58,951 nucleotides of DNA from Parcubacteria group bacterium (GTDB taxonomy: Bacteria; Patescibacteriota; Patescibacteriia; UBA9934; GWF2-40-263), in the NCBI GenBank assembly GCA_013204395.1, contig JABMNZ010000002.1, positions 1 through 58,951 of the forward strand. Direction: 5' to 3'. Shown piece after piece: positions 17,644-46,635 of the stretch. The translations under genes and the position numbers were made by a program. The notes under the pieces were generated by a model. The model was given only the letters and a program-made list of their open reading frames with translations, was not told the DNA's origin and made no database searches. Positions within the stretch are counted from its first letter, which is position 1, and every line of letters starts with the position of its first letter.

Positions 17644-20535
17644 ATGAATTTTCCTGAAAAAGAAGAAGAGGTTCTCCGATATTGGGAGGAGAACAACATT
17701 TTTAAAAAGACCCTAGATAAACAGGCCCCTAAGGGTCCGTTTGTGTTTTACGAGGGGCCACCTACGGCAAACGGTAAACCTGGTATTCACCACGCCGAGT
17801 CACGTGCCTATAAAGACTGTATTCCTAGGTTCAAAACCATGCAGGGATATAAAGTGATGCGAAAGGCTGGATGGGATACCCATGGCCTTCCCGTTGAAAT
17901 TGAGGTTGAGAAGCAGCTTGGATTTAAGAGTAAGTCTGAGATTGAAGAGTACGGCATCGCTAAGTTTAATGAGAAATGTCGTGAGAGTGTGTGGGCCTAC
18001 AAGGAAGATTGGGAGGCGTTCACTCGTCGACTTGGCTATTGGGTGGATCTTGAGGATGCTTACATTACCTATAAACCTGATTACATTGAATCGCTCTGGT
18101 GGATCATCAAGCAGGTTTGGGATAAGGGACTTTTGTACCAAGATTACCGAGTGACCCCTCACTGTCCGCGTTGTGGCACGTCCCTTTCTAGTCATGAGCT
18201 GTCACAAGGCTATAAGGATGTGAAGGATTTATCTGTGACAGGAGAGTTTCTTGTGACAGAAGGTTCCCATGAGGCACTCACCTCACAGATACCAACAAGT
18301 CTTTTGGCTTGGACCACCACACCATGGACTCTTCCAGGGAACGTGGCGTTGGCCGTTGGTCCAAAGGTTACCTACGTTGTTATTGAAAAAGAAAATGAGG
18401 GGGGAGAGGGTCGCGTGCGTTTTGTTCTTGCAAAGGATCTTGTTGAAAAGATTTTTGATGGGTCTGAGTATGAGGTTGTTGCCGAGGTAACTGGTGAGGA
18501 TTTGATTGGAACAAAGTATAAACCTTTATATAACTTTCTTGGGGAAGTTGCCGATGAGGAAAATAAGGAAAAGATGCAGGCGAAGGCCTATCAGGTTTAC
18601 GGCGCAGACTTTGTGACCACAGAAGATGGAACAGGGATTGTGCACACAGCCGTTATGTATGGTCAGGATGACTTCGTGCTCGGAAATGAGATCGGGTTGC
18701 CAAAGATTCACATGGTGAATCTAGACGGCACCTTTATGGAACCAGCTGGGTTCCTCGCGGGAAGGGTTGTTACAGATGAAGAGGTTGCCATTGATATCAT
18801 TAAGGACTTAGCACATCGTGGACTCCTGTTCTCCAAAGCAAAGTATGAACACAGCTACCCTCATTGCTGGCGCTGTAAGAACAAGGTGATTTATTACGCG
18901 AAGGATTCTTGGTATATCGCCATGAGTAAACTCCGTGAAGAGTTACTCGACGGTAATAGTAAGACTCATTGGGAGCCGTCACATATTCAAGATGGACGTT
19001 TTGGTGAGTGGCTACGAGAGGTGAAGGATTGGGCATTTTCACGTGAACGTTATTGGGCAACACCTCTGCCAATTTGGCAGAGTGAGGATGGAGACCGTTT
19101 GTGTATTGGTTCGTTTGAAGAGCTCCGCGCCCTAGCAAAGGATCCGTCTCAGGTGGGAGAATCTTTTGATCCACATCGCCCATTCGTGGATGAAGTGATC
19201 TTGGTAAAAGATGGAAAAGAATTTACACGCGTCCCTGATGTGTGTGACGTGTGGTTTGATTCTGGGTCCATGCCGTTTGCTCAGATGCACTATCCGTTTG
19301 AGAATAAAGAACTGATTGATTCTGGTGAGGCATTTCCTGCGGATTATATTTCTGAAGCCATCGACCAGACTCGAGGGTGGTTTTACACCATCTTGGCCGT
19401 CTCAACTTTGCTTGGAAAAGAAAGACCATACAAGAATGTTATCTGTCTTGGGCATGTAAATGATGCGGATGGCAAGAAAATGTCTAAATCGATAGGGAAC
19501 ATTGTTGAGCCAATGGAAATGATGGATAAGCATGGGGCTGACGCTGTGCGTTGGTACATGTATTCCATTAACCAGCCGGGCGAGTCAAAACGGTTTGATG
19601 AGAAAATGCTTTCTGACATGGTCAGGCAGAACTTTGGGATTCTTATGAACGTGGCGGCTTTCTATGAGATGTATGCTCAAGAAGATGGTGGTCAAGCGAG
19701 TGCAACCCATGTGTTGGATAAGTGGATTTTTGCTCGGTTGAATAAACTCACTCTTGAAACAACCAAACGCCTCGAGGCTTACGTTGTTACCGAGACCGTT
19801 CGTGAGCTGGGGGATTTTATTACGGATTTGTCGACCTGGTATGTACGTCGATCAAGAGACAGAATGAAGGGGACAGATGACGCTGATAAAGCGGCAGCTG
19901 TTAGTACGCTTGGGACCTGCTTGCTTACATTCTCAAAACTGATGGCTCCATTCGCTCCGTTTTTAGCGGACACACTGTATTCTCAGGTTGGTGGAAAGCT
20001 AGAGTCGGTTCATTTAGATGAGTGGCCTGAGGCAGACGAGGGTCTTATTGATGAAACCGTTATAAGTCAGATGGCCCGTGTACGTTCCTTGGTAACGGCT
20101 GCATTGGAAAGACGGGCTGAAGCTGGAATTGGGATCAGACAAGCTCTTGGGGCCATGACGGTGAAAGAGGCGATTGATGAAGAATATAAGCAGCTTGTGT
20201 TGGATGAGGTGAATGTAAAAACAATTATCTTTGATGAAAATCTTAATAGTTCGGTTGAACTGGATACAACCCTTACTCCCGAACTGATTCGTGAGGGAGT
20301 GTCTAGAGAAATTATTCGAAATGTGAATTCGCTTCGCAAGAGTGAGAATCTAACCATTGAAGACAAAATTGCTTTGTACGTAAGCGGTGCAGATGAAGCA
20401 GTTGCAGAACATAAAGAAGCAATTCTTCACGGAACACTAGCTGATTCTATTCAAACAGACGGTGAGCTGCCGGCCGTGACGAAGACCTTCTCCACAGGGG
20501 AGCTGCAGATCACCGTCGGGTTTGCTACACTGTAG
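17644..20535 (+). CDS. ileS: Isoleucyl-tRNA synthetase (type 2)
   Basis: GPPTANGKPGIHH, WTTTPWTL, AIDQTRGWFY, KMSKS. Confidence 0.98.
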   Translation: MNFPEKEEEVLRYWEENNIFKKTLDKQAPKGPFVFYEGPPTANGKPGIHHAESRAYKDCIPRFKTMQGYKVMRKAGWDTHGLPVEIEVEKQLGFKSKSEIEEYGIAKFNEKCRESVWAYKEDWEAFTRRLGYWVDLEDAYITYKPDYIESLWWIIKQVWDKGLLYQDYRVTPHCPRCGTSLSSHELSQGYKDVKDLSVTGEFLVTEGSHEALTSQIPTSLLAWTTTPWTLPGNVALAVGPKVTYVVIEKENEGGEGRVRFVLAKDLVEKIFDGSEYEVVAEVTGEDLIGTKYKPLYNFLGEVADEENKEKMQAKAYQVYGADFVTTEDGTGIVHTAVMYGQDDFVLGNEIGLPKIHMVNLDGTFMEPAGFLAGRVVTDEEVAIDIIKDLAHRGLLFSKAKYEHSYPHCWRCKNKVIYYAKDSWYIAMSKLREELLDGNSKTHWEPSHIQDGRFGEWLREVKDWAFSRERYWATPLPIWQSEDGDRLCIGSFEELRALAKDPSQVGESFDPHRPFVDEVILVKDGKEFTRVPDVCDVWFDSGSMPFAQMHYPFENKELIDSGEAFPADYISEAIDQTRGWFYTILAVSTLLGKERPYKNVICLGHVNDADGKKMSKSIGNIVEPMEMMDKHGADAVRWYMYSINQPGESKRFDEKMLSDMVRQNFGILMNVAAFYEMYAQEDGGQASATHVLDKWIFARLNKLTLETTKRLEAYVVTETVRELGDFITDLSTWYVRRSRDRMKGTDDADKAAAVSTLGTCLLTFSKLMAPFAPFLADTLYSQVGGKLESVHLDEWPEADEGLIDETVISQMARVRSLVTAALERRAEAGIGIRQALGAMTVKEAIDEEYKQLVLDEVNVKTIIFDENLNSSVELDTTLTPELIREGVSREIIRNVNSLRKSENLTIEDKIALYVSGADEAVAEHKEAILHGTLADSIQTDGELPAVTKTFSTGELQITVGFATL

Positions 20536-20539
20536 GCGT

Positions 20540-21295
20540 ATGCCAACGGATTTCCTTAAGCTTTTAACAGACCTTGGTTTGTCTCCAACTGAGACGCGAG
20601 TCTATCTAGCCTCTTTGAAGTTAGGGCCAACGTCTGTGCAAGAGATTGCCAAAAAGGCAAAGCTGTCACGGACAGCAAGTTACGACGTCATTTCTTCGCT
20701 TCAAGAGCGTGGACTCATGTCTACTTTTGAACGCGGAAAAAAGAAGTTCTTTGCTGCAGAAGATCCTGAAAGGGCCGTAAGTTATTTCCGAAGGCGTGTT
20801 CATGATCTAGAAGATCAGATTGAAATGTTTTCTCGTTCCGTTGATGAGATGAAAATGCTTACAGGTGGTGAAAGGCCAACGGTAAGATTTTTTGAGGGGA
20901 GAGAAGCCTTGTTTTCTTTGTTCAGCGATCTATCTTCATCAAATGCATCAGAATTACTTGAACTTTCAAATGTAGATCTTGTTTACGAGAAGTTGGATCC
21001 AGAGATCTTAACTGAGGCAAGAAAGGCCTTTGGTACATCGACGACAAAATTGCGCATGTTGCATTCTGGTGAGATTCGTAATCCAGCGAAGAATGCAGAG
21101 TACTGTAGACTGCTTCCAGAGTTTGGAGAGATTGGGGGAGAGATATGGATTTATGCAGATAGAGTTGCGTTCTCGCAGTGGGTGGGGAAGATGGTGGTGG
21201 TCATTGTACAAAGTAAAGTTTTTTCAGATATGGCGAAAACACTTTTCAATGCCGCTTGGTCTGTGTGTAGCGCTCAGTCGTATAAAAAGAAATAG
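20540..21295 (+). CDS. TrmB-family transcriptional regulator
   Basis: LGLSPTETRVYL..SVQEIAKKAKLSRTASYDVISSLQERGL wHTH. Confidence 0.88.
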   Translation: MPTDFLKLLTDLGLSPTETRVYLASLKLGPTSVQEIAKKAKLSRTASYDVISSLQERGLMSTFERGKKKFFAAEDPERAVSYFRRRVHDLEDQIEMFSRSVDEMKMLTGGERPTVRFFEGREALFSLFSDLSSSNASELLELSNVDLVYEKLDPEILTEARKAFGTSTTKLRMLHSGEIRNPAKNAEYCRLLPEFGEIGGEIWIYADRVAFSQWVGKMVVVIVQSKVFSDMAKTLFNAAWSVCSAQSYKKK

Positions 21296-21486
21296 AATTG
21301 AATTTGCTGTGGCTGGGTGCCTCAAGGCATTCCTCGACCGTCCTCGTCGGACTGCGGGCGGGTCGAGAAATACCTTGTGCCACCTGTGGTTAACTAATGG
21401 TTGGTAGTGGTGATGGGGGTGAAAAAATTCGTGGCGTCGAGCCACTTATTTTTTTTTGCAAAGAGCAATCACTAAAACTTGTCACT

Positions 21487-21520
21487 AAAAAGCAAAGCCG
21501 ACCCTTTTGTTGGGGGCCGG
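21487..21520 (-). terminator. Rho-independent terminator for minus-strand transcript
   Basis: CCGGCCC-loop-GGGTCGG then CTTTGCTTTTT. Confidence 0.55.
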
Positions 21521-22047
21521 TCGTCGTGGGGTCGAGCTGAGCTCGAGAGAAACGCAAGTGATCGGGGGTTGGTGGTGTTTGGTGGAGCTCGCCCGGGCCC
21601 GGATGCTTTGCTGCATCCGGGACACCGGGGTCGTCGCTCTCCGAACTAGCCTCCCATACCTCACCTCCTCCCTGCGTTACCTCGTCCACAACGATGCTTT
21701 GCCGGCCTCGAAGGCTGGCGGACGTCTTCATCGTCTTCAGGTCGTCACGAATGCGCCGTTGCGCTTATGTACGTCCTGATGGTGGGTTGATCTGACGAAT
21801 CAGCCTCTTTGTTCACCGTTATCGGTGTCATTGAAGTCGACAGTCTGATCTCGCAGGGAGGGTATGACTCTCTTCACGTGTTGGTTTCTCCGTTTTTTGG
21901 CCGAGTTTGGCCGATGGAAGTGATGGACTGATTCCTGCACTTCCAGATTCTCCTTACGATCTGCTCTCAATGGGTTCTAGCCTCCGAACATGGTGGGCTC
22001 CGGAACAGGCGAGACCGGGATGGTCCGCCAAAACTGCAGAACGGAGA

Positions 22048-22076
22048 AGACTACCATGAATCGTCCATTGTGTCAA
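22048..22076 (-). promoter_or_regulatory. sigma70 promoter (leftward of divergent pair)
   Basis: TTGACA-17nt-TAGTCT. Confidence 0.65.
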
Positions 22077-22194
22077 TGGTTCACGGACAAATAGATGTTG
22101 AAGGTCAAAAACAGCAAATTATACTGTGTTCAGAAAGTTTGAACAGAATTCTTTGCTAAATTTAGTTATATCATTCAATCTTGACCAATATGCC

Positions 22195-22223
22195 TTGACA
22201 CTTAGTTTATAAGATGATAGTCT
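22195..22223 (+). promoter_or_regulatory. sigma70 promoter (rightward of divergent pair)
   Basis: TTGACA-17nt-TAGTCT. Confidence 0.7.
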
Positions 22224-22656
22224 TCTGCCTTGCCTGATGTCAGCCCTGGCCGACAGAAGGTAAACCAACCACTTCACCAGAGAGAGGTTAATCGAGGAGA
22301 TAACATCTCTCTGGTGAGGAGGCCATTGTCAGTGATACTTGTCCTGATGATGAAATCTGGACTGTTCGTAGATAACGTCCCCACTGCTTACTCAGAAAAT
22401 GCACGAGAGTATCGTGCAAAGGACAACTGTCTGGCGACACTCCGGCTCTGAATCAATAGATTCAGTAGTAAATATCTCTAGGGGAGATAAACACAATTGA
22501 ACGGGGCGTTTTGCCCCACGGATTTGGTCCTGTGCCTGAGTTGTACCCCAGCAACTCAGCGTGCGGAGCCAATTCTGTGGGGCGACAGGTCGCTCTGGCC
22601 CATGCTTTGTGGAGACGTGCCACAAACTCGCCCTAGGGCGGGAAGAGGTCAACAGG

Positions 22657-23235
22657 ACTTCTCGGGGGATGTTATAAGAGCATCATTCCTCGGTAAGCCT
22701 TGGCGAAAGTCAGGGAAGACATCGGTTGTTATCGATGTTCCACTGCCCGTTGTTCGGGAATAGTGGCTAAGGGGAAGAACAGGTGAGTGGAGCCTGCGCC
22801 TTAGAAAATAGTTATTGCTCTTTACCACACAGACCTCGTTCGTGGTGCCTAGAGATGGGTAACACGACTGTACTCGGCGCTCAGAGTCGTCGATCCCCAG
22901 GTGGGAAAAGTGTGTGCGTAGGAGCCGCTGTCGCGGAAGCTACAATCACAAAGGGTGTAAACGAGGCACCCATACTCTAAACTCCGGCACAAAAGGATGT
23001 GTCGGTCGACTGAAGTCGGTGCGTGTGTTTCATCCTTAGTTGGGTGTGCACATGAAGGGAATCCGGATCCCATCATTCCTTGCGCCCTGCACGGAGACGT
23101 GACCAGGGATAAATCCGGCGGGGGGTCGTCGGTTGAGTGTTAAAAAACTCAGTGTTGTTACTCAGGAACCAACGGGGAGCTGAGTAATAAAAGGGCGGTC
23201 GAAAAGCCTAAATACCCGCCTACGTCGCTAGAAGT
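22657..23235 (+). ncRNA. Candidate large structured ncRNA, unit A (unknown family)
   Basis: No credible ORF; consecutive helices conserved with compensatory changes in unit B. Confidence 0.6.
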
Positions 23236-23240
23236 CTAAA

Positions 23241-23825
23241 ACTTCTCGGGGATGCATCAGAGCATCATTCCTCGGTACGCCTTGGCCAGAAGCTAAGGAA
23301 GACATCGGTCATGATCGGTGTTTCACCCCCAAGTGGGTGGCTAGTGCGACGAGTCCACGGAGCTCGTGCATTAGAAAATGGTTGTTCTTTCCAAACCCAC
23401 CACAAACTTGTTTTCCGAGAGGAAAGCAAAGTAACCCCGGCGAAGAGTGAACTCGTCGGTTGGCCACAGGCCAGTGCATCCGTTCAGGATCTCTTTGGAG
23501 AAGCTGTTCAGATGAAACGTGGGTGGAGATGAAACACTCCTCCGTTCAGTTGTTGTTGAGAAACAATGGCTACGCAAATCCGGCTGGGTGAAGTCGGTTG
23601 GCCCTTAGGTCAGTGCCTTGAACTAGGAACCGCCACGGCGGGAGCTAGTAAAAGGAAAGGCGAGATTAACGGACGCCAAATCACCCATCTTCACTGCAGC
23701 GCGAGGTCAAATAACCTCCTCCCTGCGTACGTCCACGCTGACGTCGCGCTGCGGGACCATAAGGCTCACAAGGCTTTCATGGTCCCTATTCTCCCCCTTG
23801 TCATTTATTACTCTGGTAATGAAGT
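23241..23825 (+). ncRNA. Candidate large structured ncRNA, unit B (homolog of unit A)
   Basis: Shares ACTTCTCGGGG(G)ATG, GAGCATCATTCCTCGGTA, GGAAGACATCGGT, TTAGAAAAT, TGAAGTCGGT and AGGAACC..GGGAGCT with A in the same order; 3' end approximate. Confidence 0.6.
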
Positions 23826-23867
23826 GGCAAGAGGGAGAACCATGTCCCACAAACCAAGGAGGTACAC

Positions 23868-24224
23868 ATGAACACTCTCAATTTGACGCAGCACCTGGCC
23901 AGCGAGCCGCAGATCGAAGCCGGTGTGGTGGAGCCCAAGGACAAGGCGGCGGTGCAAGCCCTGCTGACGTTCACGGAGCTGCCCAGCCAGCAGACGCTCC
24001 TTCAGCGTGCAAGCGCACTGGCCACCCTGGCCAAGGAGTCCGACTGCCAGTCCGCCATGATCGGCGGCGCCCCCTACTTCATGGGGCACCTGGAGCAGGC
24101 TCTGCGAGGAGTCGGTGTCCGTCCGCTCTACGCTTACTCGGAGCGTCGCAGCGTGGACAACGTGCAGGAGGATGGATCGGTCCGCAAGGTCGCCGTGTTC
24201 GTCCACCTCGGGTTCGTGGGGTAA
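23868..24224 (+). CDS. Small alpha/beta hypothetical protein (NLTQH...IGGAPY...RKVAVFVHLGF)
   Basis: AAGGAGGT SD; strong C/G codon bias. Confidence 0.85.
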   Translation: MNTLNLTQHLASEPQIEAGVVEPKDKAAVQALLTFTELPSQQTLLQRASALATLAKESDCQSAMIGGAPYFMGHLEQALRGVGVRPLYAYSERRSVDNVQEDGSVRKVAVFVHLGFVG

Positions 24225-24450
24225 GAGCCCGCATGGTGTGATCCGCAATCACTAAGCACAACGGGGAAACCTGGGGGACGCTACGCAAACTGGGGTCCTT
24301 TACTGCAAAGCTTTCTAGGGTTAGCTCTGCTGAAAGGACAATAAATAAAAAAAACTTATGTATACACTTGCTTATTTCACTTCATCTATTCTCATGTTTG
24401 GTCTTGTACTCGCAGCATAAAATATGAATTCACATTCGGTACTGGGGCAT

Positions 24451-24487
24451 CTTCCTGAGTTTTCGAAAATATCGAATGTTCAGGAAG
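24451..24487. repeat. 37-bp imperfect palindrome, copy 1
   Basis: CTTCCTGAGTTTTCGAAAATATCGAATGTTCAGGAAG. Confidence 0.85.
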
Positions 24488-24543
24488 CACCGTGAGTCTG
24501 GACACTCATGATGTATCACATCCAATCCTTTAAGGAGGAACCC

Positions 24544-25047
24544 ATGTCCAAGCCCCTGACCATCGCCCGCGGTCTGCGTCGTGCCAAGCAGGTCCAAGGT
24601 CGTGTCGCCGAGATGCGCGCGCGCCTGCTGACCACCACCAGCTGGCAGAAGGACCAGAAGCCCGAGTTCACCTTCGACGAGACGCTCGCGTCCTTCGACG
24701 CCGCTGTCGACGAGTTGGTGAGCCTGCGCACCGCAATCGCGCGTGCCAATGCCACCGCCACGGTGCAGTTCGGTGATCGTTCGATCACGCTCGCCGAGGC
24801 CATCCGGCAGCAGGCCGAGCTCAAGGGCCGCATCACTCTCTTCCAGTCCTTGGGACTGCGGCAGGGTGAGGAGCGGGTGCACGTCGGCTACGACGAGCGC
24901 TCCCGTCCGACCCACGAGGTCGTGGTGTACGAGGCTGTCTGGACCGAGCGCCAGCGCGCCGAGCAGATCGAAGGGCTTCGCGCCCGGCTCGAGACCCTGG
25001 GCGAGCTGCTCGAGGAGGCCAACCACACCACCCGCCTGGAGCTCTAG
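24544..25047 (+). CDS. DIP1984-like alpha-helical coiled-coil protein
   Basis: AAGGAGG SD; ITLAEAIRQQAELKGRI and LLEEANHTTRLEL resemble the DIP1984 family. Confidence 0.7.
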   Translation: MSKPLTIARGLRRAKQVQGRVAEMRARLLTTTSWQKDQKPEFTFDETLASFDAAVDELVSLRTAIARANATATVQFGDRSITLAEAIRQQAELKGRITLFQSLGLRQGEERVHVGYDERSRPTHEVVVYEAVWTERQRAEQIEGLRARLETLGELLEEANHTTRLEL

Positions 25048-25055
25048 CTTCAGCG

Positions 25056-25347
25056 CGCGGTGGGCGCCTATCGCTTGGGGCGGGGAGATTCCAACGGATG
25101 TGAGACTGATCTGAACCTAGGGCTTGTCCTAGGGGAGGTGAAGTAGGTCGCCAACCAATTTCCGACCCACCGGTTGGAGGATGGTTACCACGCGCAAGCG
25201 TGATAATGCACAAAGATTTCGATCGCGATGCCGATGCTCAGGGTTTAAGGCTTAAATGCTAAAGACTCAAGGCTAAGGATTAAAGATTCAGCGATCAGGA
25301 CTTGTGAAGACCACTTACGTCCCGCGGGCTCCCCGTCCCTCACCGCG
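25056..25347 (+). ncRNA. Candidate structured 3' ncRNA with heptamer tract
   Basis: Nested closing helices CGCGGTG/CACCGCG and CGGGGAG/CTCCCCG; GCAA-tetraloop hairpin at 25189-25202. Confidence 0.55.
25242..25304 (+). repeat. Degenerate 7-nt tandem repeat, 9 units
   Basis: GGTTTAA GGCTTAA ATGCTAA AGACTCA AGGCTAA GGATTAA AGATTCA GCGATCA GGACTTG. Confidence 0.85.
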
Positions 25348-25386
25348 ATACCACGAAGGGACCACACAACTTACGCCTGGGGTACT

Positions 25387-25423
25387 CTTCCTGAGTTTTC
25401 GACAATTTCGAGTGTTCAGGAAG
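25387..25423. repeat. 37-bp imperfect palindrome, copy 2 (followed by GGTTTTTT)
   Basis: CTTCCTGAGTTTTCGACAATTTCGAGTGTTCAGGAAG; 34/37 identical to copy 1. Confidence 0.85.
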
Positions 25424-25461
25424 GGTTTTTTGAACAGAACTTAGAATGACAAGGGAGACAG

Positions 25462-25659
25462 ATGAGCAATTCCAATGGTCCGATGACTTTGACCGCTGGA
25501 GTCAAGCGCGCGCGTCGGTGCAGTAGTGACCAGCTCGTGCGAAAGATCAAGCTGGCTGCCCATCGCCGTGTTCGTCGAAGTGTTCGTCAGCAGCTCTGTG
25601 AGTCTCACGACGATCAGGATCTGATGATGCGCGGCGCATGCGAGCGGGTGGTCTGCTAA
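25462..25659 (+). CDS. Small Arg-rich hypothetical protein
   Basis: AAGGGAGA SD-like; coupled to next ORF. Confidence 0.6.
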   Translation: MSNSNGPMTLTAGVKRARRCSSDQLVRKIKLAAHRRVRRSVRQQLCESHDDQDLMMRGACERVVC

Positions 25660-25674
25660 ACAACAGGAGAGAGA

Positions 25675-26004
25675 ATGCAAGTTATTCTAATTGGTTCTGC
25701 GAGGGGAATTCTGCTGGGAGAAGACATTCACATTCTCAGGCGAAGCAGCAGCAGTTCCTACACCATGGCTGTGGACAGTAGGACATGGTACAGGTACTGC
25801 TGCCAGGATGGTTGTTGCGATAGAGGATTGCAGCCTGATGTGCGAGAGGTAGTTGAGGCGGCCAAGGAACAGGGCGCTACACGCGTCATCATTAGGACTG
25901 GACAGGGGTCCTATTACCACGGCTCTATTGCGGGCCTTCCTGTCAGTGATGTCTCAAGTCATGTCGGCATGCTCGACGAAGGGCATATGATCATTCGTCG
26001 GTAG
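25675..26004 (+). CDS. Hypothetical protein
   Basis: AGGAGAG SD; YCCQDGCC motif. Confidence 0.65.
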   Translation: MQVILIGSARGILLGEDIHILRRSSSSSYTMAVDSRTWYRYCCQDGCCDRGLQPDVREVVEAAKEQGATRVIIRTGQGSYYHGSIAGLPVSDVSSHVGMLDEGHMIIRR

Positions 26005-26140
26005 TTCAGACTTTTTAGGAGGAGACGGTCGGGGAGCAATTCTCGACACGGTGAATGTTACGCATTCACCACGCTCCAGATGTTCACGATTTACTCGTGG
26101 GTGCCTGGAGCGTTTTGGTTTGCTGTATAATGTGATTGCT

Positions 26141-46083: not shown

Positions 46084-46137
46084 GGGAGAGGGGGGTGACA
46101 AAACACACGGCATCGAGCCGTGTGTTTTGTCGTCCTA

Positions 46138-46601
46138 GGAGCTATCTGTAAGCCGAATTTTGTCTGCTTGTGGCGACTGCCGCAAGGAGATGACAATTTA
46201 TCTAGCCCAGCTATTGCTAGCTGGATCGTGCGAGCTACCAAATTTGCTCTTACACCAGAAAGGGTTTACCACGCCTCCGTGTCGCCACGGGGCGAGACGT
46301 GTAGCCATCCTAACCGATCCCGCGAAGCGGGACCCCGAACCAACTGGCGTCGGGGCTGATCAGGGGACACCACATCACTTTTCACTTTTCACCTCACCCA
46401 AGGGTGAGGTTAGTATTGTCTCTGTGGCACTTTCCCTAGGCTTTGATCATGATGCTCGGGAGCAATATTCCAGCTCCTGAATTTCAGAACTTATACCTGG
46501 TTGTCGTTAACAACTTTCTTTTTCGATGCCCCTTACGAGACATCGGGTGTTCGGACTTTCCTCGAACTGGCTCTCACCAGCCCGTAGCCATCCGATAGTC
46601 C
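46138..46601 (-). ncRNA. rnpB: RNase P RNA
   Basis: GAGGAAAGTCC, GGGAAAGTGCCACAGA, GGTAAACCC, ACAAAATTCGGCTTA; P1 pairs the two ends. Confidence 0.93.
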
Positions 46602-46635
46602 TAAGACGGAGAGAAGATACCAAACAAGAGGGCAA

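Follow-up and report, generated by a model that had tools for sequence, protein, structure and literature searches.

On the evidence of sequence comparison, two tandem units, A and B, in the 58,951-nucleotide (nt) stretch of contig JABMNZ010000002.1 analysed here (the window) are homologous structured non-coding RNAs of the + strand. They are best described as tandem duplicates of a composite module, which combines a pseudoknotted domain (M1) with an iterated three-hairpin motif (X), and represent a new, lineage-restricted RNA family. We take this family to be real because related strains hold zero, one or two modules, or carry modules at another site. The units lie in an interval (21296-23867) that contains no credible reading frame and is flanked by a TrmB-like gene (20522-21295) and by a gene of 118 amino acids (aa; 23868-24224). 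Their layout is as follows.

22644-23229, + strand: unit A, 586 nt; hairpin H0, M1, X1, X2, X3 and terminal hairpin T
23193-23220, + strand: terminal hairpin T of unit A, GGGCGG paired with CCCGCC
23230-23688, + strand: unit B, ~460 nt; hairpin H0, M1, X1, a fusion of X2 and X3, and terminal hairpin T (23659-23677)

The relatives compared with the window are related metagenome contigs and loci, numbered with the prefix L. The closest named one is L032, a metagenome-assembled genome (MAG) of Candidatus Uhrbacteria, and many homologues of the TrmB-like neighbour also come from Uhrbacteria. Because the closest named genome is this Candidatus Uhrbacteria MAG, we assign the window organism to the candidate phyla radiation (CPR)/Patescibacteria and describe it as Uhrbacteria-like, in keeping with an earlier note on this DNA that had proposed a search of CPR and phage metagenomes.

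The earlier note had proposed a tandem pair of homologous structured RNAs of ~580 nt with compensatory base changes, and the core of that claim holds: the repeat lies far above chance, the helices are kept and the folding belongs to the + strand. The units share direct repeats of 37, 31 and 28 nt, spaced 570-583 nt apart, and the 5' ~170 nt of A and B align with ~80% identity. The predicted fold of unit A reaches -239 kcal/mol on the + strand (z -5.6) against -185 kcal/mol on the - strand (z -2.7). Across the 3' part of the unit, where three full-length sequences could be compared, 32 of 106 predicted pairs show a compensatory change. Hairpin T has counterparts in unit B (GGCG/CGCC) and in L028 (GGGC/GCCC), and the unit borders carry short direct repeats, AGRRGUC. 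The size given in the note fits unit A only, since unit B is ~125 nt shorter through the fusion of its X2 and X3. The picture of two independent RNA genes of ~580 nt also has to be modified, in favour of duplicated composite modules within one long modular RNA.

M1 is a domain of ~180 nt that comprises six hairpins, an inner helix within H5 and a loop-to-tail pseudoknot. Its positions in the two units, with scores from a covariance model of the domain (R1), and the helices of the copy in unit A are listed here.

22644-22822, + strand: M1 of unit A; R1 score 175.7 bits, fold z -3.4
23230-23389, + strand: M1 of unit B; R1 score 170.1 bits, fold z -2.9
22644-22662, + strand: hairpin H0 of unit A (helix table)
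22663-22692, + strand: hairpin H1 of unit A (helix table)
22698-22715, + strand: hairpin H2 of unit A (helix table)
22719-22738, + strand: hairpin H3 of unit A (helix table)
22740-22766, + strand: hairpin H4 of unit A (helix table)
22767-22804, + strand: hairpin H5 of unit A (helix table)
22676-22682 with 22816-22822, + strand: pseudoknot of M1 in unit A, between the H1 loop and the tail

In the pseudoknot, AAGAGCA of the H1 loop pairs with UGCUCUU in the tail beyond the segment AAAAURGUU. Copies of M1 occur twice in the window, once in L028/L029 and once in L032 (57.7 bits, E 1e-16), and the R1 matches to them range from E 1e-16 to 1e-56. Among these four copies from three genomes, eight helices stand in constant order, with standard pairs at 192 of 194 positions. 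Helices H0, H2, H3, H4 and H5 differ in sequence from copy to copy yet stay paired; many of the changes in M1 are two-sided, and one position of the pseudoknot appears as G-C, G-U and A-U. The five hairpins described in the earlier note are all present in both units and recur in the L028 and L032 copies, although H1, there drawn as GATG/CATC, takes the register CGGGGGAUG/CAUUCCUCG instead, and H0, an additional hairpin 5' of H1, had been missed. Helices H0-H5 and the pseudoknot, found in this order and with covariation, define the proposed family.

The second defining element is X, a three-hairpin motif of ~85 nt with three copies in unit A and two in unit B, scored below with its own covariance model (R2), which was trained on nine copies.

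22866-22955, + strand: X1 of unit A; R2 score 60.8 bits; closed by the stem 22835-22841/22960-22966
22976-23059, + strand: X2 of unit A; R2 score 34.5 bits, E 5e-8; outside the training set
23107-23195, + strand: X3 of unit A; R2 score 76.4 bits
23429-23519, + strand: X1 of unit B; R2 score 69.8 bits
23572-23660, + strand: fusion of the 5' part of X2 with the 3' part of X3 in unit B; R2 score 66.4 bits

Each motif begins with hairpin a, CCGGCG/CGUCGG, one of whose pairs is a near-invariant G-U; hairpin b follows, then a conserved GUG and finally hairpin c, in which an invariant AGGA and AGCU surround an internal loop. The elements CCGGC, GUCGG, AGGA and AGCU are invariant in the 17 copies known from five genomes. 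Pairing is possible in 87.4% of alignment cells against 28-52% in slid controls, 16 of the 21 pairs show a two-sided change, and none of 500 shuffles reached the observed values; these figures are somewhat flattered by the model-fitted alignment. Covariation of X is thus above both controls, and it is with this covariation that the motif defines the family. The R2 model also found three X2 copies outside its training set, in unit A, L028 and L032 (E 1e-7 to 1e-10). The X2 of unit A contains a 26-nt block, UGUCGGUCGACUGAAGUCGGUGCGUG, that is identical in L028 and L032, and shares UGAAGUCGG with the fused X of unit B as a direct repeat. The strand is fixed as + because of the near-invariant G-U pair.

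Two observations of the earlier note find their place in this motif. The stem-GAA/GAG-stem blocks that it had seen to recur late in both units are real and correspond to hairpin c, while the CCTTAG blocks that it listed beside them as shared look coincidental. The pair AACGAGG/CCTCGTT, there suggested as a loop-loop interaction, is better read as the stem that closes X1, which is kept in L028, L032 and L096 with six of seven pairs each (sequences read by eye). A likeness of hairpin c to domain IV of the signal recognition particle (SRP) RNA, in the pattern AGG...AGC, found no support in the Rfam scan of X, and we dropped it.

Known families do not account for the units. We searched Rfam 15 with Infernal cmscan, as the earlier note had proposed, at the gathering score over the whole window and at E<=10 over 21300-24500, unit A, M1 and X, and scanned five related loci at E<=0.1. 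Neither at the gathering score nor at E<=10 was there a match to the units: unit A, M1 alone and X alone returned nothing at E<=10, the 3.2 kb of 21300-24500 gave chance matches of unrelated families, and the related loci gave chance microRNA (miRNA) or small-RNA matches, all outside the units. In particular, there was no match to the ROOL, GOLLD, OLE, HEARO and raiA models (window at the gathering score, units at E<=10), to group I or II introns or small self-cleaving ribozymes (window at E<=10, relatives' loci at E<=0.1) or, for M1 alone at E<=10, to any riboswitch class. ARAGORN found no transfer RNA or transfer-messenger RNA (tmRNA) gene in 21000-26000. Other housekeeping RNAs (RNase P, SRP and 6S RNA) are likewise not matched by the units; the RNase P RNA of the window lies elsewhere (46132-46603). 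The statement of the earlier note that it could match the units neither to ribosomal RNA (rRNA), tmRNA or SRP RNA nor to introns or riboswitches is thus borne out, since all of these fail even at E<=10. Its suggestion of a new large non-coding RNA or ribozyme class stands as regards a new structured RNA; we find no support for ribozyme activity. As an aside, that RNase P RNA, of bacterial class A on the - strand, measures 472 nt against a model of 367 positions and so has sizeable insertions.

Nor did we find relatives outside the locus. Scans with R1 and R2 covered the 59-kb window and ~0.8 Mb of other loci. Searches by blastn gave no match in phage and plasmid records. Five pattern scans of IMG/VR viral contigs yielded zero or chance matches, in which re-scoring with R2 and inspection of the flanks revealed no AGGA/AGCU, and the M1 pattern found nothing among JGI metagenome contigs, where the pattern of the neighbouring GGGGC module (described below) had a single match, L092. 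The covariance models and wider search advocated in the earlier note therefore recovered copies in related contigs, and no relatives in phage or viral sequences.

We also considered, and rejected, two explanations at the level of protein coding and DNA diversification. Stop-to-stop frames can be matched between four related loci whichever frame or strand is read, and none persists to L032 or L092; the unit alignments contain many indels of 1-5 nt and no conserved reading frame. A diversity-generating retroelement is disfavoured by the differences between A and B, which are not visibly confined to adenines (alignment read by eye, uncounted). Parts of such a retroelement, bAvd and a reverse transcriptase fragment, do occur at L097:704-2119 and L101:1497-2887, a few kb upstream near rpiB.

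The units appear to be modules at a variable site in a long modular non-coding RNA of the + strand, which in the window runs for ~1.6 kb of non-coding sequence and then into the 118-aa gene, distantly Csx20-like and of the MJ1673 family. Its main parts outside the units are these.

22195-22223, + strand: promoter, TTGACA (22195-22200), 17-nt spacer and TAGTCT (22218-22223), with TG just before the -10 element; read from the sequence
22503-22583, + strand: GGGGC module, a long conserved hairpin module 5' of the variable unit site
23689-23867, + strand: conserved 3' leader with three hairpins, ACCUCCUCCCUGC in the 23714-23728 region and a Shine-Dalgarno (SD) sequence, AAGGAGG, before the gene
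23868-24224, + strand: MJ1673-family (PF27247) gene, 118 aa, distantly Csx20-like

The promoter lies ~430 nt upstream of the units, and L030, L032 and L103 share its hexamers at an equal spacing, which with the window makes four lineages; it is absent from the list returned by a consensus promoter scan. No strong terminator is listed in our scan between M1 and the gene. We infer transcription, processing and ends of this RNA from the conservation of promoter and terminator alone. The GGGGC module shows compensatory changes in L028, L030, L032, L092 and L103, and in Rfam found only a chance miRNA-like match (E 0.013). The 3' leader is present in every gene-bearing relative, including L092, which has no units; since relatives without units also retain it, it could serve to control translation of the MJ1673-like gene, and its C-rich stretches, CUCCCCCUUG, could pair with the SD. 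A second variable site lies at 22259/22270, where L030 (119-853) and L092 (634-1364) carry a 735-nt insert that is absent from the window and L028; this insert has many UUCG- or GNRA-capped hairpins and no Rfam match.

A second predicted RNA runs divergently from the first.

21487-22076, - strand: RNA element with promoter TTGACA (22076-22071), 17 nt, TAGTCT (22053-22048), and a conserved intrinsic terminator at ~21520-21487
21646-21671, - strand: strong SD, GGAGGAGGUGA, ~6-nt spacer and a mini open reading frame (mini-ORF) of three codons, AUG-GGN-GGC-UAR

This structured RNA of ~560 nt is conserved in L028, L032, L092, L096 and L103, and its promoter is near-identical to that of the + strand. 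The SD and mini-ORF occur in each of the seven lineages with this locus, in two copies in L103 and L104, and look like a start-stop or ribosome-docking element. With GCAGGGAGGAGGU the - strand RNA has a segment complementary to the + strand leader; internally, CCUCCCUGC of this RNA pairs with GCAGGGAGG, the latter also complementary to the + leader in the 23714-23728 region. The ACCUCCUCCCUGC segment of the + leader resembles the 3' end of 16S rRNA and has an exact complement in the - strand RNA; both are kept in four lineages, and the complement includes the strong SD ahead of the mini-ORF. These complementary SD/anti-SD-like segments hint at a circuit of RNA-RNA pairing that is also related to the ribosome. 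Between the two promoters lies a palindrome, TGTTCA-N7-TGAACA (22127-22145), also present in L032 and L103, a possible operator on which the neighbouring TrmB-like regulator might act.

Close relatives differ in how the modules are arranged. The window has two units at the variable site and L028 has one unit together with an extra piece of 190 nt, while in the syntenic contig L092 the GGGGC module is joined directly to the 3' leader, leaving zero units, and in L030 the site holds 270 nt of unrelated sequence and no M1. The flanks of L096 and L032 are 91-97% identical, and the 867 nt that contain M1 and X arrays in L032 correspond to 32 nt in L096. L096 lacks M1 altogether; four X motifs occupy ~800 nt 3' of its leader, just before the start codon, in arrays ~74% like those of L032 and placed ~500 nt further downstream. 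L103 and L104 keep the divergent promoter pair, the - strand RNA and the GGGGC module and lack the MJ1673 gene; their + strand RNA ends at an intrinsic terminator, and a single X motif is found, in L103 only. Because these two keep the RNA with a terminator and without the gene, we regard the + strand RNA as an RNA gene in its own right, which in the window genome doubles as a 1.6-kb leader. As read from these alignments, close relatives differ by the duplication, loss, fusion and changed placement of modules.

These differences raise a broader idea, namely that M1 and the X block serve as exchangeable RNA cassettes, which strains of Uhrbacteria-like CPR bacteria gain, lose, duplicate and relocate as whole folded domains at a dedicated non-coding locus with two divergent, co-regulated RNAs that bear complementary SD/anti-SD-like segments. 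The outcome would be a multivalent RNA in which the number of docking sites, whether their partner is a protein, the ribosome or a nucleotide signal, is under rapid, possibly conflict-driven selection. We advance this idea tentatively, as a possibility that we think rather unlikely.

The MJ1673-like protein matches the NCBIfam Csx20 model with E 1.9e-5, below the curated cutoff; Csx20 proteins are ring nucleases for cA4 (bioRxiv 10.1101/2024.09.24.614671). Its AlphaFold2 model has a predicted local distance difference test (pLDDT) value of 95, and Foldseek gave weak CARF/Rossmann-like matches, none convincing (best E 0.012, template modelling (TM) score 0.32), while a profile search of the PDB was empty. 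The earlier note had placed the units upstream of this small gene, there named for its NLTQH sequence, but the tie is not obligatory: we rejected an obligatory link of the RNA to the MJ1673 family, as neither M1 nor X occurs in the 56 further MJ1673 loci searched and L103 and L104 have the RNA with its terminator and without the gene. Because those 56 loci are without M1 and X, the RNA follows lineage and locus and not the protein family. Many MJ1673 homologues stand in phage-like contexts, and L094 and L095 show phage-like or mobile ones, the first kind of neighbourhood with a DEAD helicase and DUF3310 and the second with TnpB and an amidase, in keeping with carriage of ring-nuclease-like proteins on mobile elements.

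The block ~21296-26050, which holds the two RNAs, the MJ1673-like gene, a DIP1984/DUF6847 gene and small open reading frames, has a G+C content of 49-60% against ~43-47% in its flanks. L099 and L100 lack it entirely, so that the TrmB-like gene there directly precedes the genes that start at 26051 in the window. The block thus behaves as an accessory island.

What might these RNAs do? Our best guess is a multivalent scaffold or regulatory RNA. More specifically, we hypothesize a multivalent structured scaffold in which X provides repeated docking sites and M1 a core or sensor, acting within a long transcript, and we think this probable, though not strongly so. The iterated X motifs would dock one partner, either a protein or the ribosome or another RNA; M1 would serve as a folded core or sensor; and the copy number of the modules would tune the number of docking sites. 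The RNA would act within the long leader or non-coding RNA, and not as a ribozyme or classical riboswitch. We propose a docking role because the motif is iterated, with invariant unpaired nucleotides, and varies in copy number.

Several points weigh against our interpretation of the units as a functional RNA family with such a role. The flanks of the window and L028 are 88-97% identical and the unit 74%, which fits relaxed constraint as well as fast evolution under constraint. The zero-unit strains L092 and L030 imply that the module is dispensable for the locus. Few and related sequences, aligned by fitting to the models, underlie the covariation statistics (three genomes for M1, five for X, all from a single narrow Uhrbacteria-like clade). 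No RNA sequencing runs containing the stretch were found, the DNA runs being those of the window strain and an L028-like strain only, and the partner of the proposed docking sites is hypothetical.

Against this scaffold role we weighed four other explanations. One is a riboswitch-like leader acting in cis: as an aptamer, M1 would bind, for example, a nucleotide signal such as cyclic oligoadenylate, in view of the Csx20-like gene, and the tandem aptamers would control how the MJ1673-like gene is transcribed or translated. Such an arrangement has precedent, tandem aptamers being known in glycine and other riboswitches, and M1 resembles an aptamer in size and layout, with its many hairpins, pseudoknot and conserved joining nucleotides; it is co-oriented with the gene, a strong terminator is not seen between them, and the 3' leader has sequences able to mask the SD. 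However, distances of 1.2 kb and 0.6 kb, with X arrays in between, separate the M1 copies from the start codon, L092, L030 and L096 keep the gene and 3' leader without M1, the other 56 MJ1673 loci searched are devoid of M1, L103 and L104 have the RNA but not the gene, and the known aptamer models do not match M1. We consider a riboswitch quite unlikely. A mobile or selfish element, acting at the RNA or DNA level as an intron-like ribozyme without a reading frame or as a cassette that inserts in a non-coding landing pad, seems quite improbable as well. The precise junctions between presence and absence, the empty site in L092 with other inserts in L030 and L028, the second variable site with its 735-nt insert, and the X arrays at differing positions in L032 and L096, ~74% alike between flanks of 91-97% identity, would all suit it. 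Yet intron and small-ribozyme models found nothing at E<=10, the island has no recombinase, reverse transcriptase or transposase, terminal inverted repeats and target duplications are not seen at the junctions, and copies are confined to this one locus within the sequence scanned; the AGRRGUC border repeats, moreover, fit plain recombinational duplication and deletion.

ROOL, GOLLD and OLE form homo-oligomers (PMC12286853), and a self-assembling RNA-only particle of that kind, in which the repeated motifs would mediate contacts inside one molecule or from one molecule to another and so build a homo-oligomer, is suggested by the size of unit A (586 nt, the class for which ROOL had been invoked), by its ornate multi-hairpin layout with invariant unpaired nucleotides and by its patchy, strain-variable distribution. 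We judge it distinctly improbable: the three models do not match, the searches of viral contigs, phages and plasmids were all negative, and units that sit within a longer transcript and vary in composition are hard to fit with a defined symmetric assembly. It could finally be argued that the units are a non-functional remnant, the decaying duplicate of a dead gene or repeat with no function at the RNA level, since they diverge more than their flanks and are dispensable in some strains; but pairing survives dozens of double substitutions across all helices, the folding is strand-specific with a conserved G-U pair, and no reading frame is conserved, so that this appears extremely unlikely.

The locus is of interest beyond the function of its RNAs. 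CPR/Patescibacteria genomes are small and gene-dense, and here ~2.5 kb is given over to conserved, intensely structured non-coding sequence; to our knowledge, almost nothing is known about non-coding RNAs of these bacteria. Two of its RNA elements, the pseudoknotted domain of ~180 nt and the iterated 85-nt motif, have no relative in Rfam. If transcribed and functional, they would constitute a new large-RNA family beside OLE, GOLLD, ROOL, raiA and HEARO, and if modules do move as exchangeable cassettes, both this class of large modular RNA and such a mode of turnover of RNA domains would be new. The nearby Csx20-like, ring-nuclease-like gene and the antisense partner with SD/anti-SD complementarity hint at a regulatory circuit. 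The internal repetition of the family and its turnover of modules offer direct experimental handles.

Comparison with known systems places the units near several of them. Like ROOL (RF03087), GOLLD (RF01998), OLE (RF01071) and raiA, they are non-coding, extend over several hundred nt with many hairpins and conserved unpaired nucleotides, and are patchily distributed. Unlike these, they consist of an iterated 85-nt motif and a separate pseudoknotted domain that no covariance model matches, they sit inside a longer promoter-driven RNA, the number and position of their modules vary between near-identical strains, and they occur in a CPR lineage in which a phage context is absent. The type III toxin-antitoxin pair ToxI/ToxN likewise places tandem RNA repeats directly upstream of a small co-oriented protein gene. 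Its repeats are ~36 nt long and needed for neutralisation of the toxin, whereas our units measure 460-586 nt, the zero-unit L092 keeps the gene, and the protein is MJ1673/Csx20-like and not an endoribonuclease of the ToxN type. Tandem riboswitch aptamers, such as those for glycine, share with the units two homologous complex domains in series on a leader with a gene downstream, but the M1 domains are separated from the gene by hundreds of nt of structured RNA, are missing in close relatives that keep the gene and match no aptamer model. As in the CsrB/RsmZ sponges of CsrA/RsmA, finally, several copies of a structured motif with an invariant GGA element are present and vary in number, a likeness purely of functional analogy that suggests multivalent binding of one partner; X is, however, far larger, with three hairpins over ~85 nt, and holds its AGGA in an internal loop with AGCU and not in an apical loop. 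The family is new in sequence and structure, and we propose it as a novel kind of system provisionally.

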